A DNA stretch of 27,024 nt, from the IMG/VR virus record IMGVR_UViG_3300049489_000540. One strand, given 5' to 3'. The notes beneath the pieces are model-generated. The model saw only the letters and a program-made list of their open reading frames with translations, did no database searches and was not told the origin of the DNA. This DNA comes from a virus (taxonomy: Duplodnaviria > Heunggongvirae > Uroviricota > Caudoviricetes). Shown here in pieces: positions 224 to 26,941 of the stretch. The position numbers and the translations under genes are program-made. Each line of letters opens with the position of its first letter. Within the stretch, counting starts at the first letter, position 1.

Positions 224-813
224 GCGATACATCCAAGCAAATCTGTGTTTTCGTCGGCAAGACGCTGAATACCAAGGAAGATGGTTGGTCCACACCGATC
301 ATGCTCGTCAAGGACAAGCTGCAATACAAGCTGGAGAAGGATTCGGTGGATTTCCCGTATTGGGAGGTCGATACCTACAACAGCGACGATGAATGGACCA
401 AGGGCAACATTCTACTCAACCACAAGATCACGCCCGAGTGCATCAGAATGTCCAAGGAACGGTTCGCCATTCTGGCGAAGCACATCACGGTCTTGACCTA
501 CGATCAGTGGAACAAGGAAGAGGATCTGATTCGGACGGCTGAATTGGAAGCTTCCGAGAAGATCCAAGAGTCGGGCATCCTCGTTCCTGGCTACTACTTC
601 CATACGGGAGTCGCTGACGGCTGCTCAAACTACAAGGTCACCAAGGTCAGTGCCAAGTCGGTCACCGTGTCGCTGCGCAAGTACGGTGACGGCTACCGCG
701 ATCTGTTCTTGGGCTGTGGTCGGCGGCTCTCCATGCGCGACTTCAACACCTACTCGTTTTGGGAGCGTCGGGCTGGTCAAAAGCCGCTTGCCCTTCTGAG
801 AGCTATCCGTTGA
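220..813 (+). CDS. hypothetical protein
   Basis: 197 aa ORF, phage-like codon usage; TGA lies inside -35 box at 810. Confidence 0.85.
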   Translation: MSDTSKQICVFVGKTLNTKEDGWSTPIMLVKDKLQYKLEKDSVDFPYWEVDTYNSDDEWTKGNILLNHKITPECIRMSKERFAILAKHITVLTYDQWNKEEDLIRTAELEASEKIQESGILVPGYYFHTGVADGCSNYKVTKVSAKSVTVSLRKYGDGYRDLFLGCGRRLSMRDFNTYSFWERRAGQKPLALLRAIR

Positions 814-856
814 CTTTTCCTAACAGTCTGCTAACATAAGACCATAGGAGAAGAAA

Positions 857-1072
857 ATGCTTGCAAGCATCGACGGGCATGATAGCGTGACGCTCGCCAA
901 AGATGATGGTAGAATCCTGGGTAGAGCCTATCTGCCTGGTCCCGTCATCAACGTCAACAACCTGGGCAGCGGCAAAGTCGGCGTCATCTACGAGAGCAAC
1001 GGCACGAAGATGTGCCGTATCTTCATCGAAAATGACTACACCTACGATGAGGGTCCAGGCTTTCCACTCTAG
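857..1072 (+). CDS. hypothetical protein
   Basis: Promoter at 810 and AGGAG SD upstream. Confidence 0.8.
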   Translation: MLASIDGHDSVTLAKDDGRILGRAYLPGPVINVNNLGSGKVGVIYESNGTKMCRIFIENDYTYDEGPGFPL

Positions 1073-1080
1073 GAGAGTCC

Positions 1081-1329
1081 ATGCCGAACTCGATTCCGCA
1101 TCCGTGCATCCGTCGTGAGAATGACGGTTTTATTCTGGAATTCAAAAGCGGAGCCAAGATTCCGTTCAGCACGGATCGAGAAGCGAAGCGATATGTCATC
1201 GCCAAGCGGATTCACAAGGACTACGGCATCTGCTATTTTGAATGTGCGCCGAACCGCTACGAGGTCTTTAAGAGAGACGGTGGTGAGCGCAAGATGAAGC
1301 GGACGGCTGACGCGCCCGAGGAATATTAA
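1081..1329 (+). CDS. hypothetical protein
   Basis: AGGAG SD at about 1070; followed by terminator. Confidence 0.8.
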   Translation: MPNSIPHPCIRRENDGFILEFKSGAKIPFSTDREAKRYVIAKRIHKDYGICYFECAPNRYEVFKRDGGERKMKRTADAPEEY

Positions 1330-1351
1330 TCCACAATAGGTAGTGGTCTAA

Positions 1352-1398
1352 GCCGCTCCGAGCTACTAGGGATAGTGGCTCAGGAGCGGTTTTATTAT
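1352..1398 (+). terminator. intrinsic terminator
   Basis: CCGCTCC-GAGCTACTA-GGGA-TAGTGGCTC-A-GGAGCGG hairpin followed by TTTTATTATTT. Confidence 0.75.
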
Positions 1399-1427
1399 TT
1401 GGTTGCTTTTTCTGTTATGATATATGG

Positions 1428-1937
1428 ATGTATCGGCGGAAGTCTATAAAAATCACTGTCAACAATTTAAATGAAATCTTAAATCAAATACGCGATACAT
1501 TTGAGCGGTCAGCCGCCCCTGCTTATCTAAAAAGGAAACTCTCACAAATCCATCCGATTTTTGAAATTGTAAATGCTCCGAAGTGGCAATTGTATGGTCA
1601 GGCATATTTGGTTGGTCAGTATGCAAAAAAGAGTGCTGTGAAAAAGCGGCTGAAATTAAAAGTCAAGACCCATCCAACCGTGGTCATTGACGAAACCTAT
1701 TTCTTTTGTATATTACAGATTAACAAAGGATCCATGCACATCATTTCCCATCGAGGACTACGATACCTAGTAGCTCATGAATTAGCTCACATACTACAGA
1801 TTGTGGCTGATGAAGAAGTCGATGGGCAATACAGCTATTCAACCGCACTAGATCACGATGAAAAATGGGTAAAATACACGAAATGGATGGGCGGCACAGC
1901 GACCGAGATAATACCCTTCAAGGAGATTTGGGTCTGA
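1428..1937 (+). CDS. SprT-like zinc metalloprotease domain protein
   Basis: VAHELAH (HExxH) and downstream H-D-x-x-W..M-G motif typical of SprT-like domains; AT-rich gene; TATGAT-6nt-ATG start. Confidence 0.7.
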   Translation: MYRRKSIKITVNNLNEILNQIRDTFERSAAPAYLKRKLSQIHPIFEIVNAPKWQLYGQAYLVGQYAKKSAVKKRLKLKVKTHPTVVIDETYFFCILQINKGSMHIISHRGLRYLVAHELAHILQIVADEEVDGQYSYSTALDHDEKWVKYTKWMGGTATEIIPFKEIWV

Positions 1938-2030
1938 CATATCCTCCGTTGCCTGCATATTTCTCGCTCAGTGACTTGCGGCGGCTTGCTCACAAATGGA
2001 GCAATTTCACATGCAGCCGTCGTTTGACCT

Positions 2031-2048
2031 GGCGTGTCCAGCATGTGA
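2031..2048 (+). promoter_or_regulatory. 18-bp GGCGTRTCC motif copy
   Basis: GGCGTGTCCAGCATGTGA, 31 nt upstream of -35 at 2080. Confidence 0.6.
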
Positions 2049-2113
2049 AACACCTCATTGGAGTGAAGCGAACGATTGGTTTACTTCCTCGAAAAGCCAG
2101 GTAGAATACAAAC

Positions 2114-2581
2114 ATGCCGAAGCGTATTGGTGGTCGCATCTACCTTCACAAGAACTACATGAAGGTTCTTGGTCCCGATCTGATTCACGAAGTCACCTTT
2201 GCGCTTGAGAAGGCAGAAGAGATACTTGGTTCCTTCGATTGGAATACCCTTAGAATCAAACCTGATCATGTGGGTGGGGCAGAAGAGGTCGCATTCCAAT
2301 TTTCGCCGGATTTCGACTCTGCTGACGAACCAGAGGTCATTCGGACGGTCACTGTGCGCCTGGATGGCTCTGATTGGTCGGTTGTCAACCTCCATGACCA
2401 CAACGGCATGATCTGGCACCACAAGTGGATGTGGGTCGATTCGGACTACACAGGCTTCGACTATGTAGCTAGTAAAGCTCGTAGTGCCTTGTGGAAGCCG
2501 CATGTACGCAAGGACGAGCTTCCCAAGATCGGCAACAAGAAGTTCTGGGAGTCCATACGGAGCCGCTGGGAAAGTTCTTGA
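2114..2581 (+). CDS. hypothetical protein resembling the non-catalytic PDFD-containing domain of DNA-phosphorothioation-associated methyltransferases
   Basis: Motifs IYLHKN, FSPDFDSADEP, IWHHKWMWVDSDY, IGNKKFW resemble LYVH/YPDFDxxPHP/xLHRKExFVxxDY/IGxxxxW as I recall them; leaderless start. Confidence 0.55.
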   Translation: MPKRIGGRIYLHKNYMKVLGPDLIHEVTFALEKAEEILGSFDWNTLRIKPDHVGGAEEVAFQFSPDFDSADEPEVIRTVTVRLDGSDWSVVNLHDHNGMIWHHKWMWVDSDYTGFDYVASKARSALWKPHVRKDELPKIGNKKFWESIRSRWESS

Positions 2582-2610
2582 TTTTTGAAAGATGCTGGTA
2601 AGCTGCTGGC

Positions 2611-3057
2611 ATGAACGAGTACAAGACCGCCATCGCCCGCAACCGCCCTTCGGCTCCCGCCAAGTGGCTGCATGAGAACGGCAAGCTGATCGGTAAGATG
2701 CTCGACTACGGCTGTGGTCGTGGCAAGGACGCCGACACCTACGGCATGGACAAGTACGATCCGCACTACTTCCCCGAGCTTGCGGTGATGGGTCTGGAAA
2801 TTCTCTTCGACTCCTATGACACTATCATGTGCAACTTCGTGCTGAACGTGATCGACAGCGAAGTGATGCGTACCATGGCACTCATCTACATTCGCAATCT
2901 GCTCAAGGAAGGTGGCAAGGCGTACATTTCGGTTCGCAACGACAAGAGCAAGCTCAAGGGTCGCACCAAGACCGGCACATGGCAGGGTCTGATCACACTG
3001 GATCTGCCCGTCGTGAACAAGACTAGCAGCTACACCATGTATCTCTTGGAAAAGTGA
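2611..3057 (+). CDS. class I SAM-dependent methyltransferase (Dnd-associated-like)
   Basis: LDYGCGRGKD SAM motif, YDP.Y.P, NFVLNVI, N-terminal YKTAIARNRPSAP; leaderless start. Confidence 0.8.
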   Translation: MNEYKTAIARNRPSAPAKWLHENGKLIGKMLDYGCGRGKDADTYGMDKYDPHYFPELAVMGLEILFDSYDTIMCNFVLNVIDSEVMRTMALIYIRNLLKEGGKAYISVRNDKSKLKGRTKTGTWQGLITLDLPVVNKTSSYTMYLLEK

Positions 3058-3091
3058 ATTGACTTTTCCAAAAGACTGATAGGATACAGAC

Positions 3092-3337
3092 ATGAATCCA
3101 CATTCGACTCCCGCCAAGCATCTCAAGCTCATGGTCAAGAATTTCAGCGAACCCGCTGCGAATCTCGACAACTACCGTGATCGTGACATCAACAAGGCAT
3201 GGGAGGACGAGAACCTACCGCTGTTTCAGATGATTCCGCCGACCAAGGGTTCGATCATCAACATCGAGTGCGCCTTCCGCGTCGATTTCATCGAATACGC
3301 TGGCGGCAAGATCGTTCTCTGGGTGTCGAAGGTCTAA
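3092..3337 (+). CDS. hypothetical protein
   Basis: Leaderless promoter at 3059. Confidence 0.85.
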   Translation: MNPHSTPAKHLKLMVKNFSEPAANLDNYRDRDINKAWEDENLPLFQMIPPTKGSIINIECAFRVDFIEYAGGKIVLWVSKV

Positions 3338-3338
3338 C

Positions 3339-3584
3339 ATGTACTTCACCATCGTTCACGATCATACGGCTCATTCCAGCCAGCATGATCATCGGCTATT
3401 CCTCTGCAATGATGGTGCGTTCCGCAGCGGCATCTGGTCAGGCTGCTCTGGCTCGACCTACTGCTACAAGCGGCTGTCCGCTGCCATGGCGCGGTTCGCC
3501 AAGGTGAACAAGAAGGAATTTCCGAACGCCTGCATCGTGGCGGAAGATGGCGGCTACACCTGGAACATTCACCGAGTCAAGTGA
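3339..3584 (+). CDS. hypothetical protein
   Basis: Abuts neighbouring ORFs; codon usage. Confidence 0.75.
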   Translation: MYFTIVHDHTAHSSQHDHRLFLCNDGAFRSGIWSGCSGSTYCYKRLSAAMARFAKVNKKEFPNACIVAEDGGYTWNIHRVK

Positions 3585-4171
3585 GAGATACTGCCATGAA
3601 GATCACCACCGAAATCCACACCACCATCAGGATCACTGATGTCGAAACGACTTGGGATCGACTCGAAGCACTGACGAAGATGGTGAAGAAGATTTACAAG
3701 GATGCGACCGTCAATTACAACGGCACCAGTTGCAATGGTTTCATGCTGGTGTTCCCTGGTGCGATCAGTGAGGCGCTGGACGAAAAGAAGATTCTGGCTG
3801 CTCTGGCTGCTGGTGACAAGGTGGACCAGGACCGCGAGGAAGATAACAAGAAGTTCGCTCTGGCGTTCGAGATTCCCACCATTCCGAAGTATTCGTTGAA
3901 GCCGTCGAATCAGAAGAAGGCGGCTGACGAACTGGTGGATCTGATCGCCAGCTACATCGTGGATTTCCATGGGCATCGGAACAAGAAAGAGTGGAGCGAG
4001 GCATGTTGCTGCGCTGGTGACCTCATGGATTACGTCGATCTGCTCAAAGCCATCATCGCTGGTGACAAGAAGGCGGCTGTCAAGGAAATTCGGTCGATGG
4101 ACACTTCGCCCCGTGAGAACCTTTCCGATGTGGTGCGTCGGTGGTGCGGCGATGAGGAAGAGGACGATTGA
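3581..4171 (+). CDS. hypothetical protein
   Basis: 196 aa ORF (start may be ATG 3596); TGA inside -35 at 4168. Confidence 0.85.
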   Translation: MRDTAMKITTEIHTTIRITDVETTWDRLEALTKMVKKIYKDATVNYNGTSCNGFMLVFPGAISEALDEKKILAALAAGDKVDQDREEDNKKFALAFEIPTIPKYSLKPSNQKKAADELVDLIASYIVDFHGHRNKKEWSEACCCAGDLMDYVDLLKAIIAGDKKAAVKEIRSMDTSPRENLSDVVRRWCGDEEEDD

Positions 4172-4200
4172 CTTCTGCCAGAAGCTGGTAGAGTACAAAC

Positions 4201-4434
4201 ATGAAGAACATCATCAATGTCGGTGACATGGTGACCTATCGTGGTGGCTTCGGTGGCGATCCGCCGAAGCGTGCCAAGGTCGTGGGACTGACCCTGACCG
4301 ACGAGCCGCGTGAGAAGTACGGTCAGGAGGTTCTGTCGGTGGATGTGCAGAGCGTCAAGGCGAACCGCGTGCTGTTCGATCTGGACGATGGGCACTGGTG
4401 CTACAGCGATCAAATCGTATTCAAGAAGGGCTAA
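4201..4434 (+). CDS. hypothetical protein (small beta-barrel-like)
   Basis: Leaderless promoter at 4168; INVGDMVTYRGG start pattern. Confidence 0.85.
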   Translation: MKNIINVGDMVTYRGGFGGDPPKRAKVVGLTLTDEPREKYGQEVLSVDVQSVKANRVLFDLDDGHWCYSDQIVFKKG

Positions 4435-4435
4435 C

Positions 4436-4615
4436 ATGAAAGACTATGATATTCTCAGCGAACGCATCCATGATGCGGATTCCGAAGTCAACGAGAACAT
4501 GGTGCATTGGCTCCATGAGTATCTGAACGGTGGCTGCACCCGTGAGAAGCTGATGACCGTGTTCATGCAGGCTTATGAGAAGCAGGAAGTTATCGATCCG
4601 CCGTGGGTGAGCTAA
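4436..4615 (+). CDS. hypothetical protein (start corrected to MKDYDIL)
   Basis: ATG 1 nt after upstream TAA; in frame with track ORF 4310-4615. Confidence 0.75.
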   Translation: MKDYDILSERIHDADSEVNENMVHWLHEYLNGGCTREKLMTVFMQAYEKQEVIDPPWVS

Positions 4616-4655
4616 AAGCTTATTGACTTTTCCAAAAGTCTGATAGAGTACAAAC

Positions 4656-4937
4656 ATGAGCAAAGCTAGAACCATTCCCTTCTTCGATGCCATCGACCGC
4701 ATGCAGATGGCAGACCTCGTTCTCATCACCTTCGATGATGGTACTTCCCGTCCCGCTTCGTCTGTCGGCTGGGAGGAAGAGGGTGAGGAAAAGAGCGATT
4801 TCGTCCTGGGTGGCACTGACACCGGCATGGATGATATCTACTTCACCTTCGGTAAGCGCGTGAAGGTGGACAAGGACGGTAATCTGCTGCCCAGCGGCTA
4901 CACAGTCAAGGTCGGCACCTACGACAAGCGCACTTGA
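4656..4937 (+). CDS. hypothetical protein
   Basis: Leaderless promoter at 4623; TGA inside next -35. Confidence 0.85.
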   Translation: MSKARTIPFFDAIDRMQMADLVLITFDDGTSRPASSVGWEEEGEEKSDFVLGGTDTGMDDIYFTFGKRVKVDKDGNLLPSGYTVKVGTYDKRT

Positions 4938-4985
4938 CTTCCTCGATTTCCTCGATAACATCAAACCCATACAGGAGAACAGAAC

Positions 4986-5183
4986 ATGGCGTCCAAGATC
5001 ACCGTCAGCACCAAGGGCTGGAACTACAATCCCTTCAAGAAGGGCGGCAACCGTTCCGGCGCTGGTAAGGAACTCAAGAAGCGTGCTGTGTGGTGGGAGA
5101 AGGGCTGGGCACCGCAGAACGCCTCCCCGACCCGCTGCGCCGTGCCGCACACGAAGAAGCAGAGGCGATCCCAGGTCGTCTGA
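4986..5183 (+). CDS. small basic hypothetical protein
   Basis: Promoter at 4934 and AGGAG SD; K/R-rich. Confidence 0.8.
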   Translation: MASKITVSTKGWNYNPFKKGGNRSGAGKELKKRAVWWEKGWAPQNASPTRCAVPHTKKQRRSQVV

Positions 5184-5189
5184 TGCACA

Positions 5190-5632
5190 TCAAATCTCAT
5201 ATCGTTGGGGTGACCGTATGAGATTATCCGCAAGGACGAGTCATTGACTTGACCGTAGCTCATGCAACTTTCTAGATAAGGTGCATGTAGAAGACATCCC
5301 TCCCTTTACAAATCTATACAGTGACTCAAGAGTGACCAGTAAGCCCTTATACGGCTGGGATTGATCCCCCCGAGAAAGAACTGGTATCAAACCATATCGT
5401 TAGTGTCAATAGTTTAGCACGCTCCCCTTTAAAGGGAGAAGAACCGGAGCATAACCGGTACGCTCGCAAATACCGATGAATACTGTTGCAACGGTCGGTG
5501 GTTCCTAAGTCTGGTCACTCTTGAGTCACTGTACAGCATGGCAAGCAGTCCCATGGTGGGAACAGACCCCTGGTGAGGCATCGAGCATACCGTTCCAGAC
5601 CGGCACTTGCTCTGCCCACCAGGGGGTTGCTT
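5190..5632 (+). ncRNA. candidate structured ncRNA (about 440 nt)
   Basis: No credible ORF; perfect 23-bp inverted repeat 5317-5339/5511-5533; hairpins 5193-5225, 5227-5236 (GCAA loop), 5422-5438, 5567-5625; GNRA loops and G-U pairs favour + strand. Confidence 0.5.
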
Positions 5633-5659
5633 TTTTCCAAAGGCTGATAGAATCCAATT

Positions 5660-6448
5660 ATGCGCGTGGTAAGCCTCTTCGACGGTATCGCTTGTGGGCG
5701 TCTTGCTCTCCAGCGGCTCAACATTCCCGTCACCAGCTACAAGGCATCTGAAATCGAAAAGCATGCGATCACGGTTGCTCGTAGCAACTTTCCCGACATT
5801 GAGCATGTCGGTGATGTGACGCAGCTTTATGTCGGTGAAGGTGAATGCGATCTGCTGATGGCTGGCAGCCCATGCCAAGGATTTAGCTGCTCAGGCAAGC
5901 GGCTGAATTTCGAAGATCCTCGCTCCAAGCTCTTCTGGGAATTCGTGCGTATTCTCAAGGAATCCAAGCCTCGCTATTTTTTCCTTGAGAATAATCGGAT
6001 GAAGCCGATCTGGCAAGATATCATCAGTGAAGCCGTTGGCTGCAAGCCGCTGCACATCGACGCTGGCACTATTTCGGCACAGCATCGTGAGCGGCTGTAC
6101 TGGACCAATATTCCTGGTGCTTGTGTTCCCGAGCCGAAGCCGAAGTTTCTGTCGGAAATCATCGGTGAATACGACAAGAAGATTTGGATCTATCCCCGTG
6201 GTCATACCGATAAGGGTGTGTACGATTACGAGGACAAGTGCCCGACCATCACCATTTCGTCATGGGAAGGAAATTTCTTCTACCTTCGCAACGGTGAGAA
6301 GATTCGCTTCACGCCAGAGCAAGCCGAAGAAATTCAAGGTCTGCCCATCGGCTACACCGCAATGGTTCCCAAGACGGTGCGCTTCAAGAAGGTCGGTAAT
6401 GGCTGGTCGATGCCCGTGATTGAGCATCTGTTCAGCGGCTTGAAGTAG
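5660..6448 (+). CDS. DNA (cytosine-5)-methyltransferase
   Basis: Motifs I (SLFDGIACG), IV (GSPCQGFS), VI (ENN), VIII (HRERLYW), X (VGNGWS); leaderless start. Confidence 0.95.
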   Translation: MRVVSLFDGIACGRLALQRLNIPVTSYKASEIEKHAITVARSNFPDIEHVGDVTQLYVGEGECDLLMAGSPCQGFSCSGKRLNFEDPRSKLFWEFVRILKESKPRYFFLENNRMKPIWQDIISEAVGCKPLHIDAGTISAQHRERLYWTNIPGACVPEPKPKFLSEIIGEYDKKIWIYPRGHTDKGVYDYEDKCPTITISSWEGNFFYLRNGEKIRFTPEQAEEIQGLPIGYTAMVPKTVRFKKVGNGWSMPVIEHLFSGLK

Positions 6449-6581: not shown

Positions 6582-6830
6582 TTATGAACCGATTTGCATG
6601 TAGTAGCCAGGCGCGACCACCCGCACCTTGTTGGCGTCCTTCACATCGAAGAACTCAGCACCACCACCGCAGAAGAAACCAATCGCAGCATCGACCACAT
6701 TGATCTTGTCACGCGGAATGACCTTGCTGATGGGCATTTTCCAATTCGGCTTGGGCTTCACCAGATCGATGCCCTCTTGAAGCTGCTTGCGATTGAACCC
6801 AAGGAAAACGGGCTTCGGGTCGTTCATCAT
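6582..6830 (-). CDS. hypothetical protein (start corrected to MMNDPK)
   Basis: Track ORF 6582-6887 overlaps the upstream gene; internal ATG fits the packing. Confidence 0.75.
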   Translation of the reverse strand: MMNDPKPVFLGFNRKQLQEGIDLVKPKPNWKMPISKVIPRDKINVVDAAIGFFCGGGAEFFDVKDANKVRVVAPGYYMQIGS

Positions 6831-6847
6831 GTCTTGGATGGGATCGC

Positions 6848-7204
6848 TCACTTGACCACCTCCGTGCCCCACTCGGGCTTGAACCAATCCAGACGGGTCG
6901 CATAGAACCAGACCTGACGATCCTTGCCGCAGAAGGTGCCGCCTTGGGCGATGGTGAGGTCATCGGTCGGCATGACATCGGGATCGGGACCACCACCGAA
7001 CTGCGGAGGCGAAGTCGGATACGAGAGATAGCTGCGCATGCCCTCCTTACCCACCGCCCACCAGACGTTGCGGGAACCACCGTCCCAATAGCCACCGTAG
7101 AGGCTCACGGGCTTGTCGGTCACGATGACCACAGCGGTGTTCTTGCGCGTGCCGAGAACACGCTTGCCGAGAGAGGTCAGCTTGAAGGTATGATGCTCGC
7201 GCAT
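6848..7204 (-). CDS. hypothetical protein
   Basis: Promoter at 7248 and AAGGA SD. Confidence 0.85.
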   Translation of the reverse strand: MREHHTFKLTSLGKRVLGTRKNTAVVIVTDKPVSLYGGYWDGGSRNVWWAVGKEGMRSYLSYPTSPPQFGGGPDPDVMPTDDLTIAQGGTFCGKDRQVWFYATRLDWFKPEWGTEVVK

Positions 7205-7253
7205 GGTGTTTCCTTGATGGTTTGTATTCTAGCAGACTTTCGCAACAAGTCAA

Positions 7254-7556
7254 CTACTCGTCGCAACCACCACCATAGCAACCATAGTCCTCGTCGGTCC
7301 CCATGCCAGCGGACGCCAGCGTGTCCGCATCGGCTTCCACATCGGTCATGGAGTCCTCTGGCTCGTCCCGCTCGTTCTCGACCTCATGCTCCACGATTTC
7401 CCCCAAGGAAATGTAGAGAGTCACCAACTGCTCACCGACCCAGCCACGAATCCAGCCGGTATCGTCGGAGATTTCCTCGTTGATGGGATTGAACGAATCC
7501 GCCTCCGCGAATCCACGCTCAGTGAGGTAGGTCTTGGCAGCGTCGGTCCAGGTCAT
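7254..7556 (-). CDS. acidic hypothetical protein (start MTWTD)
   Basis: TAGGAT-6nt-ATG at 7556. Confidence 0.8.
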   Translation of the reverse strand: MTWTDAAKTYLTERGFAEADSFNPINEEISDDTGWIRGWVGEQLVTLYISLGEIVEHEVENERDEPEDSMTDVEADADTLASAGMGTDEDYGCYGGGCDE

Positions 7557-7621
7557 GTTCATATCCTATCACACTCTTGGAATAATCAACAACCAACTTC
7601 CATTGAGAACATTCGAGTGCA

Positions 7622-7639
7622 TGATACACCGGACACGCC
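7622..7639 (-). promoter_or_regulatory. 18-bp GGCGTRTCC motif copy
   Basis: GGCGTGTCCGGTGTATCA, 32 nt upstream of -35 at 7584. Confidence 0.75.
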
Positions 7640-19483: not shown

Positions 19484-19813
19484 TCAAGTCTGATCTTCCT
19501 TGCCCGCAGTCCAATAGCGGTCGGCGTTCTCCAATGCCTGACGCATGGACGCAACACCCACGCTATTCTGGCTATGAATGCGCCACTTGAGCGGCTTGAT
19601 GTAGCCGTTGAAAGCTGCTTCCTCGATGGCTTTCGCCACCATGTAGCCGTCGCCGCAGACTTCCTCTGGTCCTAGATCATGGTCAAGGCTGACCTCTTCG
19701 ACCCGACCAAATAGGATCATGTCAACCGCATCCCTGGCGGTCTTGATCCAAATCCAATCGGTTTCTCCCGTGAATTGCACGGGATCGCGCTTGTCATCGA
19801 GCCAGAGCTTCAT
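19484..19813 (-). CDS. cyclic-phosphate processing receiver domain protein
   Basis: LWLDD.R.P, SLDHDLG, GYMV, IHSQNSVG match the stand-alone receiver family common in phages. Confidence 0.8.
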   Translation of the reverse strand: MKLWLDDKRDPVQFTGETDWIWIKTARDAVDMILFGRVEEVSLDHDLGPEEVCGDGYMVAKAIEEAAFNGYIKPLKWRIHSQNSVGVASMRQALENADRYWTAGKEDQT

Positions 19814-20019
19814 TAGAACTTGTCCACTTTCAGATCGGTGAACTCGGGGAATCGCTGCATCTTGGCAAGCATCTGTTGGGCGTCCCGCTCGTCATGGCAC
19901 CATTCCAGCACACCAGCCGCTTGACCAGAGGGAGCATTGTGGACGCCAGTGACGCACCACCGCTTACCCTCGGCATCAGCTTGCGCCCAATTGACGGGGG
20001 TATTGCGGAACTTATACAT
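19813..20019 (-). CDS. hypothetical protein (start MYKFR)
   Basis: TAGAGT-7nt-ATG. Confidence 0.8.
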   Translation of the reverse strand: MYKFRNTPVNWAQADAEGKRWCVTGVHNAPSGQAAGVLEWCHDERDAQQMLAKMQRFPEFTDLKVDKF

Positions 20020-20049
20020 GCGCAACACTCTACGGAGAAATTGAAAAAG

Positions 20050-20463
20050 TCAATCCTTCAATGCGATGGTATATGCACCGTAGTAGTTGCACGGCTTGAC
20101 CACGATTTCGTCGCAGTCCAGCCACTCGGCAAGCTGCTTCTCGCCGCCCTTGTGTGACCACACATCGATGCTGATGTTGACGCTCTTGGTGACGATTCGG
20201 CGCTCCACATGCCATTCGGTGGCATTACCGTAGACGCCTTGCGGCTTCCTCGCCTTTTCGAAGCGCAGCGAATAGCCGCAGCCCTTGAGGCTCAGAGCAA
20301 CTTCAGCCAGATGCCCGTAATGGGTGCCCAACTCTCTGATGGTGCGACCTTCCTCGTCACCTTCGGTCGTGACCTTCCACCAACCAACGGGCGTCAGCGA
20401 CCACTTCTGGAGCGCCGTCAACTCGGGGTCGATGGTCTTGATGAGCTTGAGCTTGTAGGGCAT
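20050..20463 (-). CDS. hypothetical protein
   Basis: Leaderless promoter at 20491; TGA in next -35. Confidence 0.85.
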   Translation of the reverse strand: MPYKLKLIKTIDPELTALQKWSLTPVGWWKVTTEGDEEGRTIRELGTHYGHLAEVALSLKGCGYSLRFEKARKPQGVYGNATEWHVERRIVTKSVNISIDVWSHKGGEKQLAEWLDCDEIVVKPCNYYGAYTIALKD

Positions 20464-20498
20464 GTTTGTATTCTATCGGCAGTTTGGAAAAGTCAACA

Positions 20499-20729
20499 TT
20501 ACTTAACTTCGGAAATCTCCCGCCAGATGACGCCATTGACCACAACTCTATTTCCGCCTTTGACATAATACACACGGCACATGTTGCCATAGAAGTGGAA
20601 AAACTGGCGCTCGATGTCCTGCCGATTGCACTTGTAGTGTTCACACAACTCATTACGGTCGAAGTGATCGACAGCGACCGCCGATCCGATAATAAGCAAG
20701 ATGGCGGAAACAAGGAGAAGTTTGGTCAT
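20499..20729 (-). CDS. secreted or membrane-anchored hypothetical protein (start MTKLL)
   Basis: TATGAT-6nt-ATG; signal-peptide-like N-terminus. Confidence 0.8.
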   Translation of the reverse strand: MTKLLLVSAILLIIGSAVAVDHFDRNELCEHYKCNRQDIERQFFHFYGNMCRVYYVKGGNRVVVNGVIWREISEVK

Positions 20730-20758
20730 GGTCACATCATACCATGCGTTTGAGAAAG

Positions 20759-20986
20759 TCAATAGTTGGTTGCCCAATCCAACAGCGGCTTGGACGCAGC
20801 ACCTTCGGCTTCGATGGGAAAGCTGCGAACCTCATAGGCGCATTTGGCATAGTCACCATCGTCCAGGTATGACATAGCCTTGAGAACACACTTGCGAGCA
20901 TACTCGTATTCCACATCCAGACGATCAAGCGTCTGGTCGAGTTGACCCGCAAGATACTCCTTGAGGATCTTTTCTTCGTTGCTCAT
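20759..20986 (-). CDS. hypothetical protein
   Basis: Leaderless promoter at 21014; TGA in next -35. Confidence 0.85.
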   Translation of the reverse strand: MSNEEKILKEYLAGQLDQTLDRLDVEYEYARKCVLKAMSYLDDGDYAKCAYEVRSFPIEAEGAASKPLLDWATNY

Positions 20987-21015
20987 GTTCGTATTCTATC
21001 AGCAGCTTGAGAAAG

Positions 21016-21294
21016 TCAATACTCCACTTGAAAGCCGATCATGCGAGCGACTGTCAGCAGATTGTTCTTGTCGCCATTGCTGAACACGATGTCATGGCTG
21101 AAATCGCTCCATGCATTGATCAGCCCCTTGACATAGAGGCTGTGCGTGTATCCAGCGTCTTCCATAGCCACTTGGATTTCGACGCCATTCTGGAGCTTGA
21201 GAATCCATTCATCACGATACTTGCAGCGATGCACGCCCTGCTGCTTGACGTACTCGTAGATGCGATTCAGCAGCTTTTCGGGATTGGTCAGCAT
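21016..21294 (-). CDS. hypothetical protein
   Basis: Leaderless promoter at 21322; TGA in next -35. Confidence 0.85.
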   Translation of the reverse strand: MLTNPEKLLNRIYEYVKQQGVHRCKYRDEWILKLQNGVEIQVAMEDAGYTHSLYVKGLINAWSDFSHDIVFSNGDKNNLLTVARMIGFQVEY

Positions 21295-21323
21295 GTTCGT
21301 ACTCTATCACATTCTTGGAAAAG

Positions 21324-21674
21324 TCAAGCCTTCCAGAACCAACGCTTGCCCTTCTTGTAGATGGGCAGCGTTTCGTCAGTGAACACTTTCAGATTGCCAG
21401 CATAGATCGAACCGTAGCTTCCCCAGCGGCAACGCTTGGCATTGAACGCATCGGGATGATAGTCCAGAAACTCTCGCTCATGCTCGGGCGTCTCGAAGAT
21501 CACCGGCTCACCAACTACTGGATACAGATTCAGATAATACAGCGCATGGAAATGATGCAGTTTCCGCTTGGCATCCCAAGTCAGAATGTAGGTATGCATC
21601 AGAATGTCCATGATCGTCTTACCACTCTTGCGAGTCAGGTACGACGAACACATGGCGCTGTAATAATGGGTCAT
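21324..21674 (-). CDS. hypothetical protein
   Basis: Leaderless promoter at 21702; TGA in next -35. Confidence 0.85.
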   Translation of the reverse strand: MTHYYSAMCSSYLTRKSGKTIMDILMHTYILTWDAKRKLHHFHALYYLNLYPVVGEPVIFETPEHEREFLDYHPDAFNAKRCRWGSYGSIYAGNLKVFTDETLPIYKKGKRWFWKA

Positions 21675-21703
21675 TCCGCTATGTTAGCGTATCATTGAGA
21701 AAA

Positions 21704-22030
21704 TCAAGAACCAAGTAGCTTGTCCAGTTCCTCTTTCAGTTTCTTGCGTCTCTCCGTGTCGTATGCCTTCTCTTGAAACTGGTTACAGATGGAATCATTC
21801 ATGGAAGGACCGACATAGCGACCGCTCTTCTGGTGAACTTCTCGGGGGCACAGACTAGAACACATCCACTTGTCACATGCACCACATGTGGCAGGCTTGT
21901 GTATAGCATTCTTCAACTCATTGATCTTTTGCTGTTTAGCAACAGCATTGCCGATATTCGCTGCCCAATCGAAAATCTCTCTACCGTCACTTGAAATGTC
22001 TTGCGGAATGGGCGGAATGTTATTCGCCAT
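21704..22030 (-). CDS. hypothetical protein with Cys cluster
   Basis: CGACDKWMC..LCP...C; TGA in next -35. Confidence 0.8.
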   Translation of the reverse strand: MANNIPPIPQDISSDGREIFDWAANIGNAVAKQQKINELKNAIHKPATCGACDKWMCSSLCPREVHQKSGRYVGPSMNDSICNQFQEKAYDTERRKKLKEELDKLLGS

Positions 22031-22235
22031 TCTTTTCCTTGATGAAGAACGAAACCCGCTTCGCTTCCGCCATGGTCAGACAGTCATGCACCTTGGTCAG
22101 ATCCATACCCGAACGCTTCTTGTAGTCGTTGCCACCGTCCACAGCAGAACGATTCTCGCAACCACACTGGACGAAATCGTGCGTGTGCTTGGAATGGAGA
22201 ATGTCACCACAGATGAGGCAGACGGCGAGGTTCAT
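22020..22235 (-). CDS. small zinc-binding phage protein
   Basis: CLICGDILHSKHTHDFVQCGC...VDGG pattern common among phage hypotheticals; leaderless promoter at 22264. Confidence 0.8.
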   Translation of the reverse strand: MNLAVCLICGDILHSKHTHDFVQCGCENRSAVDGGNDYKKRSGMDLTKVHDCLTMAEAKRVSFFIKEKNGE

Positions 22236-22319
22236 GCCAGGAGTCTATCGAGGACTTCGAGAAAGTCAATAGACCAGGCATCACATTGACTTATTCAAAT
22301 GCTTGATAGAATACGAAGC

Positions 22320-22550
22320 ATGACCCACATCGACACCGACACCGACTTCTGCCTGGTCACGGGCAAGCTGCTCATGGTAAGCGTGCCGACCCGCTGGCAC
22401 ATGCACTACGACAACGAACTCGATGCGAAGGAAGTTGCCGACAAAATCAATGCGACGGATGAATGGGACATGGTTCCCGCTCGCTTCACCGATGACCACG
22501 GCAAGCCATACTGGACCGTCAGCAACGGCTGCTGGTCAGTCATCCGTTGA
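22320..22550 (+). CDS. hypothetical protein (start MTHID)
   Basis: TAGAAT-7nt-ATG; TGA in next -35. Confidence 0.8.
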   Translation: MTHIDTDTDFCLVTGKLLMVSVPTRWHMHYDNELDAKEVADKINATDEWDMVPARFTDDHGKPYWTVSNGCWSVIR

Positions 22551-22600
22551 CTTCTTTCGGTTTCTAGATAACATCCAAACACAACCAAGGAACAGACCCC

Positions 22601-22996
22601 ATGAGCGCATGGCTACTCGGCAGAGAAACGATGACGATGATCCGCAACAAGCTGGTCAAGTCGCTCATGGATGACAAGCGGCTTCCCGAGGCTGATGCGG
22701 TCGCGGAAGCGACCAAGCAAGTCATGAAGTGGAATCGCATGAATCGCTATGCGATTCTCTGCCGCTACGGTGATAAGAACATAGCGGTGCGGCTGCACAA
22801 GTACACGGGCGACGAGGATGTCTGCTCCGATGTGCAGATGTTCAAGTCGCTCCAGTGTCTCCACTACCAGTGCAGCGAGGGCGACACCGAGACGAAGCAC
22901 CGCAAGGCATGGAACGAGTTGGAACGGTTGACTGGCAAGTTCGCGGAAGCGGTCGCCAGCACCCATCCCGACTACAACAAGGCGGAATGGGGCTGA
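22601..22996 (+). CDS. hypothetical protein
   Basis: Promoter at 22547 and AAGGA SD. Confidence 0.8.
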   Translation: MSAWLLGRETMTMIRNKLVKSLMDDKRLPEADAVAEATKQVMKWNRMNRYAILCRYGDKNIAVRLHKYTGDEDVCSDVQMFKSLQCLHYQCSEGDTETKHRKAWNELERLTGKFAEAVASTHPDYNKAEWG

Positions 22997-22998
22997 TC

Positions 22999-23229
22999 AT
23001 GGCACGCAAAGGATCGATGGGCGTTCTAGAAACCTTGCAGAAAGGTCCAGAGCATCCGTATGGCTCTGCGTCTGACCATGAAAATGAATGTGTCAAACAA
23101 GCCAAGGAATGGATAGTCGGGGCTGGTCCGATAGAGTATCGGAAGCAGCTACTCGATGCGCTCCTGGCGTTCGAGCGTCGGAACATTCTCAACGAAGCGG
23201 CTATGGATGCTGCTGGGGAAAGTTCTTGA
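22999..23229 (+). CDS. hypothetical protein (start MARKG)
   Basis: ATG 2 nt after upstream stop; TGA in next -35. Confidence 0.75.
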   Translation: MARKGSMGVLETLQKGPEHPYGSASDHENECVKQAKEWIVGAGPIEYRKQLLDALLAFERRNILNEAAMDAAGESS

Positions 23230-23259
23230 TATTTCCAAAAGCGTGATAACATCAGAACC

Positions 23260-23469
23260 ATGCCCAAGATCAAGCCCACCAAGCCCACCACCGTTGCCGA
23301 GTGCGTCGATGGTTTCGGCTTCACGAAGCGTAGCGATGCCATCTACCGTATGAACGAGTGGACGCGCAAGACCGACATGCAGCATGACATCGTGAAGCTG
23401 TCGGACGGCAAGTGGTACGTCTACAACCGTGTGCCCGTCGCGTTCCGTCCCCTCCAGAGGAAAGGCTAA
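23260..23469 (+). CDS. hypothetical protein
   Basis: Leaderless promoter at 23226. Confidence 0.8.
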   Translation: MPKIKPTKPTTVAECVDGFGFTKRSDAIYRMNEWTRKTDMQHDIVKLSDGKWYVYNRVPVAFRPLQRKG

Positions 23470-23472
23470 ACC

Positions 23473-23706
23473 ATGGGTACCGCAATCGTCATCCTCTTCT
23501 GGTCGCTGGTTCTGCTCTACTTCGGCACCGCTCACATTCTGGCTCTGCTTGTCGATGTGATCTGCTTCTGGGGCAAGGTCAACTGGAAGAAGCCCGATAC
23601 GATCAGCTATTCGTTCACTTCTGGCGGCTGGAAAGTGGCTGCCTTCGTTCTCGGTTTCGCTGGTATGCTCTGGTCCGTCATCGTCCTCGCCATCAAGTCC
23701 GCTTGA
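23473..23706 (+). CDS. two-TM membrane protein
   Basis: Two hydrophobic segments; TGA in next -35. Confidence 0.8.
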   Translation: MGTAIVILFWSLVLLYFGTAHILALLVDVICFWGKVNWKKPDTISYSFTSGGWKVAAFVLGFAGMLWSVIVLAIKSA

Positions 23707-23735
23707 CTTTTCCAAACCTCTGATAGAGTACAAAC

Positions 23736-24215
23736 ATGAACCACATGAGCGCCAACGAACTCCGCACCATCATCAGCACCACGCTCGTCATCAACGGCAT
23801 GAGCCATGATGCGCTCAAGCAGATGGTGTTCGATCTGCTCGCCAGCAATCCCAAGCTGATCACCAAGACGGTGAACGGCGTCAAGGCTGCCGAGGCTGCT
23901 GCCGAGGCTGCCAAGACCTTCAAGGTCGTGCTGATCAAGCCCGGTATCAACAAGATCAATTTCATCAAGCTCGCCCGTTCGCTCCATTGCATGGGGCTGG
24001 CGGAAGCCAAGGATTGGTCCGAGGGCACCACCAACCAGCCGAGCGGCAAGCCCTTCGGTGTCATGGGTTCGGGTCTGAGCGAAGCGGCTGCCAATCAACT
24101 GATGGAACGGTGCAGCAAGGAGTGCAACGACGGAAGCGCCTTCAAGGTCATTTGGGATGACTACCCGTACACGGCTGTCACCTACCCGCGCTTCGCTGGC
24201 TACGGCGGCAACTAG
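23736..24215 (+). CDS. ribosomal protein bL12 (L7/L12) C-terminal-domain-containing protein
   Basis: AAEAAAEAAKTFKVVLIKPGINKINFIKLARSLHCMGLAEAKDWSEG...GLSEAAANQL aligns by eye with bL12 [43 protein letters not shown]...GVSKDDAEAL; leaderless. Confidence 0.75.
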   Translation: MNHMSANELRTIISTTLVINGMSHDALKQMVFDLLASNPKLITKTVNGVKAAEAAAEAAKTFKVVLIKPGINKINFIKLARSLHCMGLAEAKDWSEGTTNQPSGKPFGVMGSGLSEAAANQLMERCSKECNDGSAFKVIWDDYPYTAVTYPRFAGYGGN

Positions 24216-24451: not shown

Positions 24452-24949
24452 TTAGATCGCCACCCCGTTGATGTGGGTGATGCTCTCCACGGTCACGTTG
24501 AAGACCTCGTTCTTGCCGTCCTCGCGGTCCTTGGGCAGTTCGCTGGCGAGGGCACCGACCAGAGCCTCGTCGCGGCTGATTTCGACACCGTTGCGGAGGT
24601 AGGTCACCTTGGTCGGGTTGCCGTCGAAGCGGGTGCAGCGGATCTGGTGCTTGCCCGACTTGATGCCGCGCAGCAGATGCGGGAAGGCGACCCACTCCAT
24701 GCCGTTCAGACCAGCGTTCTCAGCGGGCAGCACACCCTCTTCACGGGCGACCCGCACCGCACCGATGTTGTCGTAGTTGACCCCGATGCGGGTCTGGAAC
24801 TTGCTGACCTTGAGGGTCGGGACGCCAGCGGCGTCCTTGCGGTACTTGACGGGGCGCTCCGTCTGGAGGGTCACGATCTGACCCGTGAGGGTCAGCAGCT
24901 TGGCGACGGGGGCGGGGAGGTTGGCGGGGATGGAGTCGATGGCGCTCAT
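24452..24949 (-). CDS. hypothetical protein
   Basis: 165 aa, GC-rich; promoter at 24996 and AAGGA SD. Confidence 0.85.
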   Translation of the reverse strand: MSAIDSIPANLPAPVAKLLTLTGQIVTLQTERPVKYRKDAAGVPTLKVSKFQTRIGVNYDNIGAVRVAREEGVLPAENAGLNGMEWVAFPHLLRGIKSGKHQIRCTRFDGNPTKVTYLRNGVEISRDEALVGALASELPKDREDGKNEVFNVTVESITHINGVAI

Positions 24950-25173
24950 GGCGTGTCCTTGGTTGATGGGTCTAGCTTACCGTGTTCTTGGAAGATTGCA
25001 AGAGGGAGTTTTGCTTGAGTGGCTTTCTGTCGTTGCTCTGTTGACACTCTAGCAGCATCCGAGCAGGCTGGGTGCAATCGACGTTGCACGTTGTATGCTC
25101 TCCTTTCCATCCCTCCTACGGACGCAATGCGGGAACTGACAAAAGTATTTCCGAGGCTGCATGATCGAGTCAA

Positions 25174-25191
25174 TCACACACTGGATACGCC
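25174..25191 (-). promoter_or_regulatory. 18-bp GGCGTRTCC motif copy
   Basis: GGCGTATCCAGTGTGTGA. Confidence 0.75.
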
Positions 25192-25196
25192 GATCC

Positions 25197-25218
25197 GCCA
25201 CTCTCTTGCGAGAGTGGC
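25197..25218 (-). terminator. GCCACTCTC-GCAA-GAGAGTGGC hairpin (terminator-like, lacks U-tract)
   Basis: 9-bp stem just downstream of ORF 25231-25452. Confidence 0.5.
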
Positions 25219-25230
25219 AAGCCCCGTGCG

Positions 25231-25452
25231 CTAGGCGCGGGTGCAGTCCTCGACGCCTTCGAGTTCCGCCAGCCACGCCGGGGCGTCGATGGCGACCTCG
25301 CCGCCGCGCTCGATCAGCAGCCCCAGCAGCGCCCGCGCCTGGCTGGCTCGACCGTAGAGGTACGCCTGGGACGCGAGGGTGTCACCGGATTCGAGCTTCG
25401 TGCCGGCGATCCAGGCGTCGAGGGTGGCGGGGGTGATGTCTTTGTCGCTCAT
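25231..25452 (-). CDS. hypothetical protein
   Basis: Leaderless promoter at 25480. Confidence 0.85.
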   Translation of the reverse strand: MSDKDITPATLDAWIAGTKLESGDTLASQAYLYGRASQARALLGLLIERGGEVAIDAPAWLAELEGVEDCTRA

Positions 25453-25518
25453 GTTTGTACTTTATCACACTCTCGAAAAAGTCAACATCGAGTTGCTATC
25501 GAGCTACCATCAAGTGGC

Positions 25519-25536
25519 TCACACATCGGATACGCC
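25519..25536 (-). promoter_or_regulatory. 18-bp GGCGTRTCC motif copy
   Basis: GGCGTATCCGATGTGTGA, 33 nt upstream of -35 at 25480. Confidence 0.75.
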
Positions 25537-25547
25537 GCGCCTGGTCG

Positions 25548-25582
25548 ATGAAAACGAAGAAACCCAGCCGAGTGGCTGGGCT
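25548..25582 (-). terminator. intrinsic terminator
   Basis: CCCAGCC-ACTC-GGCTGGG followed by TTTCTTCGTTTT; tail identical to that at about 10705. Confidence 0.65.
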
Positions 25583-25605
25583 TCGTTCTACGAGCAGCTT
25601 GCGAG

Positions 25606-25815
25606 CTACTTGACCTCGCGCACCCGCTGGGCGACCTCCAGCCGCTTCTGGACCTCCAGCGGCACCGCCAGCAGCTTGCCCAGCGCCTTCCACGCACCCG
25701 TGGACAGCACCTCGATGCGCGTCCCCGCACGGACCAGCACCACATCGCCGGGCTTGCCCGTGGCGAGGGCGATGCCCTTGGTGTCGGTGACGGAGAGGAT
25801 GCGAGCGAGAGCCAT
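25606..25815 (-). CDS. hypothetical protein (start MALAR)
   Basis: Promoter at 25866 and AAGGA SD. Confidence 0.8.
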   Translation of the reverse strand: MALARILSVTDTKGIALATGKPGDVVLVRAGTRIEVLSTGAWKALGKLLAVPLEVQKRLEVAQRVREVK

Positions 25816-25867
25816 GGGTCGGTTCCTTGGTTGGTTGTGTTTGTACTCTACCAGCTTCTTGGAAAAG

Positions 25868-26152
25868 TCAAGCCTTCGCTTCCCAGCCATTGCAGCCGAA
25901 CGTCGAAGGCGGGCGGAATGAACTGTTGAGGTTGGTATCATCATCAGCCGATGCCTCTACATGCGAAGCAGCGGGACCGTCGCACTCCATATGGATTACA
26001 TATGAAAAATATGTCCGAGAAGTCTTGACCTCACGGTAGAACTTGCACGTTGCGCATGTCTTGGGCTGGACCTCTCCGCACTTCTCGCACTTGAGGCTGT
26101 CCCCGACCAGATGGAAGGGACCGCACGGACCATTGCATGCAATCTGGCTCAT
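25868..26152 (-). CDS. Cys-rich hypothetical protein (start MSQIA)
   Basis: ATGA overlap; CEKC, CATC; TGA in next -35. Confidence 0.75.
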   Translation of the reverse strand: MSQIACNGPCGPFHLVGDSLKCEKCGEVQPKTCATCKFYREVKTSRTYFSYVIHMECDGPAASHVEASADDDTNLNSSFRPPSTFGCNGWEAKA

Positions 26153-26484
26153 CCCAGCGTCCGCTCCAAGATGCCGTCCCGACCGCCGAGGTTGTCGCAG
26201 TACACATCCGAGGCGTCCAGCACCATCTTGCCACGGCATGTGATGATCCGCACCGTGTAGGTGTCGGAGGCGTTCAGCGTGATCATCACTTGCGCATGGA
26301 CCTTGACCTTGGGGTTGGGGTTGACCTTGAAGGTCACGCCGCCGAGGATGCCCCGAGCATCGTCACGGGGCACGATGGTCGGCTTGTGCATGCCAATGCA
26401 CATGAGCGTTCCGCCGAAGCCGCGCCCACACTGGTCGAGGATGGTGTTGGCGATGTTGCGGGGATCGCGGGGATCGTTGCTCAT
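26149..26484 (-). CDS. hypothetical protein
   Basis: Leaderless promoter at 26513. Confidence 0.85.
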   Translation of the reverse strand: MSNDPRDPRNIANTILDQCGRGFGGTLMCIGMHKPTIVPRDDARGILGGVTFKVNPNPKVKVHAQVMITLNASDTYTVRIITCRGKMVLDASDVYCDNLGGRDGILERTLG

Positions 26485-26547
26485 GTTTGTACTCTACCAG
26501 GCTCCCAGAAAAATGCAACATCGAGTTGCGACCAGGCAGCGACCCCA

Positions 26548-26565
26548 TCACACACCAGATACGCC
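26548..26565 (-). promoter_or_regulatory. 18-bp GGCGTRTCC motif copy
   Basis: GGCGTATCTGGTGTGTGA, 29 nt upstream of -35 at 26513. Confidence 0.7.
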
Positions 26566-26569
26566 CGTC

Positions 26570-26589
26570 GCCACTCCTTGCGGAGTGGC
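26570..26589 (-). terminator. GCCACTCC-GCAA-GGAGTGGC hairpin (terminator-like, lacks U-tract)
   Basis: 8-bp stem just downstream of HTH gene. Confidence 0.5.
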
Positions 26590-26603
26590 TGGGGGAGCGG
26601 CTA

Positions 26604-26855
26604 TCAAGCCGCCTTGCGCTTGACCAGCATCGGCATGCGGTGGACGCCGACGATGCCCTTCTTCGGGCTGAAGATCAGCAGCGAGCCGTAGCGACGGCTG
26701 GACGGGATGTGGCGGGTGTACTTGTAGACGGTCGGCATGCTGATGCCCGTGGCGCGTGCGATTTCCATCAGCGACATGTCGGTGAAGGACCGCAGATACA
26801 GGATCGTGCGGACCAGCTTGGGGTTGATGGAAGCGAGAGTGGGGCGACCGCGCAT
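26604..26855 (-). CDS. helix-turn-helix DNA-binding protein
   Basis: MSLMEIARATGISMPTVYKY HTH signature; promoter at 26904 and AAAGGA SD. Confidence 0.8.
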   Translation of the reverse strand: MRGRPTLASINPKLVRTILYLRSFTDMSLMEIARATGISMPTVYKYTRHIPSSRRYGSLLIFSPKKGIVGVHRMPMLVKRKAA

Positions 26856-26941
26856 GGCGATTCCTTTGGGGTTGTGGGTGATACCTTACCAGGATCCTGG
26901 GAAAGTCAACTAGGTGCGATTCGAGAATAGTACATCGAGAA

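Follow-up and report, generated by a model that had tools for sequence, protein, structure and literature searches.

Introduction

Leaderless genes in which a −10 element adjoins the open reading frame (ORF) are known from Deinococcus–Thermus (PMC12340547) and Actinobacteria (PMC4633059), and 375 leaderless mRNAs have been catalogued in Caulobacter (PMC4117421). Among phages, the middle and late mRNAs of Thermus phage phiYS40 are reported to be mostly leaderless (Sevostyanova et al. 2007, summarised in PMC3594737). Promoter-bearing gene cassettes of another kind, the promoter-early stem-loop (PeSL) elements, have been described in the T4-type phages RB49/phi1, T4/PST and KVP40/nt-1 (PMC2839356, PMC4122927). 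Here we analyse an array of near-identical promoters in a stretch of 27,024 nucleotides (nt) from an uncultured large phage (IMGVR_UViG_3300049489_000540), recovered from a freshwater-sediment metagenome; the whole stretch is referred to as the window. About half of its approximately 74 small genes have a bacterial-type promoter that directly adjoins the ATG, and their messages probably begin at the ATG itself without a ribosome-binding leader.

The array shares with the bacterial leaderless genes a TANNNT element fixed a few bases before the AUG, an AUG start and the lack of a Shine–Dalgarno (SD) site. It differs in being phage-borne, in its strongly conserved −35 element and TG extension, in comprising around half of the genes of a 27-kb stretch and in the occurrence of the same promoter in a leadered version. 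As in phiYS40, a large share of the genes would be expressed as leaderless mRNAs, a share that is predicted here from sequence. The leaderless class of phiYS40 is reported to be middle and late, whereas the promoters of the window look host-type and early; the phage group and habitat also differ. The array is thus a systematic use of a known mode of expression. A literature search for descriptions of such arrays in T4-like phages found none. The leaderless-class promoters of phiYS40 reportedly have no −35 element.

Promoter motif and gene starts

Genes were called using a codon-score model (72 genes) and two were added by hand. The GC content of the window is 49–60% and that of third codon positions (GC3) is 74% in coding frames; because this third-position bias is strong, the gene calling is regarded as reliable. 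Gene lengths agree with those of a public assembly of the same DNA in which genes were called independently. The median gene length is about 77 amino acids (aa), and the genes lie in six strand blocks.

The pattern TTGACW-N14–18-TANNNT has 35 matches in the window against 1.1 expected, and none of 100 shuffled sequences reached 35. A position-weight matrix (PWM) with a flexible gap gave 39 sites scoring at least 14 (0.8 expected), termed strong promoters in the following, and 48 scoring at least 10 (2.4 expected). The conserved −35/−10 array reported in the first-pass annotation is thus confirmed, and the ends given for it correspond to the first (810) and the last (26909) strong site. The consensus consists of TTGACT, a T-rich-to-A-rich spacer TTTCCAAA, CTGn and TAGRRT, often followed by ACAAAC, and so reproduces the spacer word and the discriminator described there. 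The hexamers of the strict matches are separated by 15 nt (n = 23), 16 nt (n = 11) or 17 nt (n = 1), in agreement with the 15–16 nt originally noted. A TG extension at −15/−14 is found in 27 of 39 strict matches, and spacer positions C10, A11 and A12 carry more than 1.2 bits each.

All 39 strong promoters are followed on the same strand by a gene or an ORF-free stretch: 30 have an ATG 6–7 nt past the −10, seven have a leader of 19–37 nt and two have no ORF. These last two (14366–14392 and 18939–18965) head ORF-free RNAs, which marks the motif as a promoter and not a translation signal. With four weaker full promoters and four −10-only sites the total is 47 modules, of which 35 are leaderless-type (a count that takes in two near-variants); the earlier figures were 47 and 33. 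At 19 of the 39 strong promoters the preceding gene ends on the TGA within TTGACT, so that the intergenic space is the promoter alone; this holds for most promoters of the densest run (19307..22269).

A TANNNT element lies 6–7 nt before 33 of the 74 gene starts, compared with 19 of 1103 other ATGs (1.7%; p = 4e-38). If the −10 element occupies −12 to −7, then +1 coincides with the A of the ATG. The two groups of genes differ in their start signals. ATG is the start codon in 35/35 leaderless-type genes and 33/38 others, among which all five GTG starts are found. An SD site of at least 5 nt precedes none of the 35 leaderless-type genes and 21 of the 38 others (31 of 38 with at least 4 nt), and a pyrimidine occupies −1 in 33/35 and 26/38, respectively. 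The distance from the −10 to the first long ORF is bimodal (5–8 nt, n = 26; 9–14 nt, n = 1; 15–35 nt, n = 11), as is predicted for two distinct initiation modes.

The seven leadered strong promoters have a stereotyped leader, ACAAAC..CAACCAAGGAA..ATG, so that the two promoter forms differ by an SD insert of about 15–22 nt. In the leadered forms (e.g. 7226–7253, 22547–22574, 25845–25871 and 26883–26909) the ACAAAC discriminator is followed by CAACC, AAGGAA, 5–8 nt and the ATG. The same arrangement is the dominant form in a distant relative, L008 (see below).

Conservation in related phages

Megablast against the INPHARED phages found no close DNA relative, and no cultured phage there matches at the DNA level. 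Scans of IMG/VR gave no relatives at the protein level, and with the motif gave no matches in a first scan and six single, chance-level matches in a second. The relatives used here are metagenomic phages found by protein search, for several of which the DNA was compared. L007 covers window positions 77–11044 at 80% nucleotide identity and L017 covers 12196–25192 at 79–93%; L010 and L011 (GC content 53 and 43%) have 57–59% amino-acid identity. All four share the layout TTGACT, 15/16-nt spacer, TAGRRT, 6–7 nt, ATG, which is thus kept in four related lineages that span a GC content of 43–54%. Position is kept in 22 orthologous promoter pairs. The promoter of the 137-aa gene (20470–20496) has drifted in its spacer and flanks, but its −35 and −10 and the ATG do not vary among the four lineages.

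In the more distant L008 a spacer of the same short length is combined with TATAAT, and 16 of its 21 promoters have leaders of 15–35 nt with AAGGA sites. The distant L019 and L020 have TTGACA-N17-TATAAT, leaders and AGGAG. Spacer length is therefore lineage-specific (15–16 nt here and 17 nt in L019/L020), and the promoter layouts give a leaderless share that runs from about 11–14% in distant relatives to 67–87% in this lineage. Individual genes also switch mode: 3339–3584 is coupled here and leaderless in L007, whereas 16203–16445 (SD-led here) and 19143–19310 (coupled here) are leaderless in L017. Relatives combine this kind of promoter with ordinary leaders, so the group forms a natural series for studying how and why genes switch their mode of initiation.

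Predicted initiation on the start codon

We consider it likely that promoters of the host sigma-70 extended −10 type start transcription on the A of the ATG and yield leaderless mRNAs. The first-pass annotation had proposed an array with +1 on the ATG and no SD, and both the statistics of the DNA and the relatives speak for it. In the proposed mechanism, promoters of the host housekeeping-sigma type (−35 TTGACT, TG at −15/−14, −10 TAGRRT) would drive the array, presumably early. In some 35 cases, in which the −10 ends 6–7 nt before the ATG, RNA polymerase would start on the A (C at −1, A at +1); the resulting mRNA would have no 5′ leader and would need leaderless (70S-type) initiation. The remaining genes have a leader of 19–37 nt with an AAGGA-type ribosome site or are coupled to the preceding gene. 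As terminators are few, the output of each leaderless gene is proposed to come mainly from its own promoter.

Several points weigh against this account. The matches in an RNA library (see below) are assembled contigs, from which 5′ ends cannot be read. The 15–16 nt spacer is shorter than the 17 ± 1 nt optimum, and recognition by the unmodified host enzyme is an assumption. With few terminators, read-through from upstream would place these ATGs inside longer RNAs, on which the A/C-rich, unstructured stretch (ACAAAC) could allow SD-independent 30S initiation. Profile and promoter-word searches identified no host; that it can translate leaderless mRNAs is presumed.

Confirmation of the starts would make this a phage in which leaderless initiation, considered a minor route in most well studied bacteria, serves around half of a large repertoire of accessory genes, and the layout could then aid in predicting the hosts of freshwater phages that are uncultured. 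Standard software for calling genes or predicting promoters, being tuned to SD sites and 17-nt spacers, will score such genomes wrongly.

Gene exchange at promoters

The array had also been read as a set of promoter-plus-gene cassettes analogous to PeSL elements. Taken further, the promoters would be mainly sites of homologous recombination that move promoter-plus-gene units, with the leaderless geometry as a side effect; we hold this to be possible, but only tentatively. The length of the repeat would suit it: promoter copies have up to 22 nt of exact identity and share 35–37 of 45 positions, and BLAST cross-matches between non-orthologous promoters extend over 37–49 nt at 82–93% identity. 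Comparison with L007 and L017 gave about 21 indel or replacement events (42 breakpoints), some of which cut at or inside a promoter. One promoter is interrupted between its −35 and its −10 by a 1.3-kb block of four genes (7665–8967), and indel borders against L007 lie at 7257/7555 and 7664/8968. Genes were inserted exactly between the discriminator and the ATG (3092–3338; 19312–19449, with a flanking TGCC(C)ATGA repeat), and the gene 7254–7556 was inserted along with a second promoter. The segment 23710–24230, with a bL12-like gene and its promoter, is missing from L017, where only the stop-codon-bearing TTGACT remains. In L017 an 80-aa gene took the promoter of its neighbour and the first three codons of that neighbour via GCTCAAG microhomology.

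In this part of L017 (3300–3640, plus strand) the adjacent 80-aa and 137-aa genes open with the same promoter and the codons ATG CCC TAC; the 80-aa gene of the window is SD-led and does not have these codons. The arrangement in L017 looks like a promoter capture that stamped a new N-terminus onto the protein.

Of the 42 breakpoints, 15 are no more than 6 nt away from a promoter, compared with 5–8% of random positions (p = 3e-6 and 8e-4), but this does not exceed the proportion of gene borders that bear a promoter (31–41%; p = 0.1 and 0.94). Promoters thus act as exchange sites in individual cases, and a preference over other gene borders is not demonstrable. Two further results count against PeSL-type mobility. 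Several indels move a gene without a promoter, and no stem-loop is apparent: hairpins upstream of the −35 are not enriched (47-nt minimum free energy −9.6 kcal mol−1 versus −9.45 kcal mol−1 in random windows, p = 0.88), and terminator-like sites in the window are at the shuffled level (18 versus 17.4 expected). Of the cassette claim and the analogy with PeSL, gene gain and loss at promoters, with some cuts inside the promoter or at the ATG, therefore stands; the missing stem-loop, the promoter-less moves and the lack of a breakpoint excess over gene borders leave both only partly supported. The synteny comparison that had been proposed for motif-bounded indels separates the 42 breakpoints from random positions and not from gene borders.

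As with PeSL elements, many near-identical, strong sigma-70-like promoters stand before small ORFan genes in a plastic region, genes are gained, lost and replaced between relatives at promoter sites, and some crossovers fall between the −10 and the ATG, as reported for PeSL mini-circles. Unlike PeSL elements, the array has no stem-loop terminator and most copies have no SD site; the ATG is at the predicted +1, the −35 often holds the stop codon of the previous gene, and breakpoints show no excess over ordinary gene borders. As judged from the DNA, the array resembles PeSL in its genomic role and fails two of the defining features (stem-loop and SD).

Polymerase and host

The elements of a sigma-70 extended −10 promoter are all present (TTGACA-like −35, TG at −15/−14, −10 TANNNT). 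The hexamer spacing of 17 ± 1 nt that is optimal in Escherichia coli and Bacillus subtilis (PMC12340547) is not that of the window promoters. A gap that varies between 15 and 16 nt between two conserved blocks fits a sigma-70-type enzyme and does not fit a single-subunit polymerase.

It is improbable, in our estimate, that recognition of the motif depends on a transcription factor which the phage modifies or encodes (a sigma factor or an appropriator), in which case the genes would be middle and not early. Such a factor would explain why the spacing is 15–16 nt and not 17 nt and why the T-rich/A-rich spacer, with its three informative positions, is conserved, and there is a candidate, an 83-aa protein (26604–26855, minus strand) that is SD-led from promoter 26883–26909 and has a sub-threshold match to the sigma-70 region-4/helix–turn–helix (HTH) family (2e-5). 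From this similarity, the protein could bind −35-like boxes. However, its HTH match is generic: a PDB sequence search gave only generic HTH matches, the best being SigF region 4 (E = 0.11). The promoters contain all three of the classical group-1 sigma elements, which would be enough, and the spacer word drifts in orthologous promoters (CCAA to ATAA or CTAT), which favours a preference in composition or bending over a factor-binding site.

The remaining alternative, that the geometry is an artefact of compaction, with few promoters, polycistronic RNAs, SD-independent initiation and idle −10-like words beside the ATGs, is very improbable: the scarcity of terminators, the unstructured starts (A/C-rich before and after the ATG) and RNA-library contigs that span one promoter (19996–20146; possibly DNA-derived) are in its favour, but compaction alone cannot yield a full −35/TG/−10 set at 6–7 nt from the ATG in 30 cases, the same motif also heads SD-led genes and ORF-free RNAs, and neighbouring bases drift between lineages in which the −35 and −10 are kept.

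For the host, a profile of the 209-aa family was searched against 185,579 species genomes and gave no match. Matches of the promoter word to the species genomes were all single and spread over unrelated taxa; their number, 33, is close to the roughly 17 that were estimated to arise by chance. Weak hints come from two proteins and disagree: the 188-aa Ogg-like protein matches phiCbK-type Caulobacter, Erythrobacter and Sinorhizobium phages at 45–47%, and a 155-aa protein matches KVP40-type Vibrio phages at about 40%, so that one points to alphaproteobacterial phages and the other to Vibrio T4-type phages. The TAGRRT −10 resembles actinobacterial consensus sequences, which is no evidence for the host. 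The sigma-73 promoters of Caulobacter may have short spacing. No such statement is present in the text of PMC1175088, and PMC4287350 places only the 5′ end of the motif, at −34 to −37. Caulobacter translates leaderless mRNAs as well as leadered ones (PMC4117421), which is likewise no evidence for the host here.

Map of the array

The positions of the promoters and blocks are given in Table 1. The window is best read as a hyperplastic accessory-gene region, consisting mostly of ORFans, in which approximately one gene in two has its own promoter. In Pfam and PHROG searches most window proteins had no match. The exceptions are a C5 DNA methylase, a SAM-methyltransferase-like protein, an Ogg-HhH-like protein, a cREC_REC domain and a bL12 C-terminal-domain-like protein, with sub-threshold matches to RMF and sigma region 4. 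Searches of the window found no Rfam family (at the gathering threshold and also at E ≤ 1), no tRNA and no occurrence of the T4 late box TATAAATA.

Table 1. Promoters, blocks and associated genes of the window. Arrows lead from promoter to gene start.
Feature	Position	Strand	Remarks
Plus-strand block	810..6448	+	PWM scan, gene table; orthologous promoters in L007
Leaderless promoter → gene start	2080–2107→2114; 2578–2604→2611; 3059–3085→3092	+	
Leaderless promoter → gene start	4168–4194→4201; 4623–4649→4656; 5627–5653→5660	+	
−10-only site → gene start	1413–1421→1428	+	
Leadered promoters → SD-led gene starts	810–837→857; 4934–4961→4986	+	
Minus-strand block	6582..12786	−	
Leaderless promoters	7563–7589, 8947–8974, 11338–11364, 11528–11554, 11900–11926, 12759–12786	−	
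Leaderless promoter	9615–9642	−	Weak −35
−10-only site	10083–10091	−	5 nt from ATG
Leadered promoters	7226–7253, 8141–8168, 12182–12209	−	
Weak promoter	12855–12882	+	22-nt leader and SD; drives 260-aa gene 12905–13687
Block	13684..14392	−	
Promoter, then about 485 nt without ORF	14366–14392	−	Kept in L017
TGATATAAT −10	13864–13872	−	6 nt ahead of leaderless 57-aa RMF-like gene 13684–13857
Block	14640..17757	−	SD-led or coupled genes between promoters; L017 orthologues
Leaderless promoters	14868–14894, 15950–15976, 16658–16684, 17186–17213	−	
Weak leadered promoter	17730–17757	−	
Leaderless promoters	18289–18315, 18758–18784	−	Block 18144..18965
ORF-free promoter	18939–18965	−	Runs into hairpin terminator 18841–18868; candidate RNA of about 95 nt
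Densest run	19307..22269	−	Nine consecutive leaderless promoters counted, eight with coordinates in the next two rows
Densest-run promoters	19461–19487, 20027–20053, 20470–20496, 20736–20762	−	
Densest-run promoters	20993–21019, 21301–21327, 21681–21707, 22242–22269	−	
Divergent plus-strand block	22286..24215	+	
Leaderless promoters	22286–22312, 23226–23252	+	
Leaderless promoter of bL12-CTD-like gene	23703–23729	+	Gene 23736–24215 (CTD, C-terminal domain)
Weak leadered promoter	22547–22574	+	
Block	24452..26909	−	Leaderless promoters 25459–25485, 26491–26518
Leadered promoters	25845–25871, 26883–26909	−	CAACCAAGGAA-type leader
SD-led 165-aa gene	24452–24949	−	

Possible ribosome-related genes

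The 57-aa product of the gene 13684–13857 (minus strand) has a sub-threshold Pfam match to RMF (1.3e-5; 25.6 bits, the cut-off being 27.9). The three top-ranking entries in a PDB sequence search are all ribosome modulation factor, with which the product shares the pattern G-[FY]-x-A...CPY...W..GW. The gene is itself leaderless (TGATATAAT, 6 nt, ATG). A 159-aa protein (23736–24215, plus strand) matches the ribosomal L7/L12 C-terminal domain above the Pfam cut-off (2e-6). Its gene has a consensus leaderless promoter, and gene and promoter are absent from L017; a 118-aa relative with the same weak match is encoded on a contig of a more distant phage.

In E. coli, the anti-SD region of 16S rRNA is masked by RMF. 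As a comparable case, phiYS40 reportedly shifts the balance of IF2 and IF3. It is conceivable, although we think it improbable, that in this lineage most early genes came to be expressed without leaders in the course of a takeover of translation, in which the RMF-like and bL12-CTD-like proteins would depress SD-dependent initiation and favour 70S initiation on the leaderless mRNAs of the phage.

RNA-library contigs and other observations

Short contigs of a sediment RNA library match the window exactly at 13883–14089, 15018–15209, 17871–18044 and 19996–20289. The matches comprise seven short contigs, from which strand, ends and expression level are not readable. This library was one of four sequencing runs compared with the window, all of them in the form of contigs; two of the others contain small shares of it. 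Apparent joints in the contig mapping were traced to cross-matches between promoter repeats and were discarded.

The promoter at 18939–18965 lies in an ORF-free region (18835–18965, minus strand) and is strong; it leads to a 12-bp hairpin terminator (18841–18868), which defines the candidate RNA of about 95 nt. The 5′ end predicted for this RNA, ACGAAGG, is similar to the one (ACGAAGC) of the ORF-free RNA of 485 nt that promoter 14366–14392 would produce. The hairpin terminator alone matches contigs of other freshwater runs. A further stretch of about 250 nt without an ORF (17864–18120, minus strand) lies between a 10-codon mini-ORF and a hairpin terminator (17836–17863). The contig of highest depth in the RNA library (17871–18044) falls within it, and an antisense promoter-like site (18000–18028, plus strand) is conserved in L017.

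A 416-nt ORF-free insert (5215–5630, plus strand) between the gene 4986–5183 and the leaderless methylase promoter is absent from L007. It has no Rfam match and a folding energy of −152 kcal mol−1 (z = −6.6 versus shuffles), and a long-range stem of about 23 bp closes a multi-helix junction. It is a candidate for a structured RNA or a small mobile insert. The 109-aa protein encoded at 19484–19813 (minus strand) has a clear match (2e-22) to cREC_REC, the cyclic-phosphate processing receiver domain, and is kept in L017.

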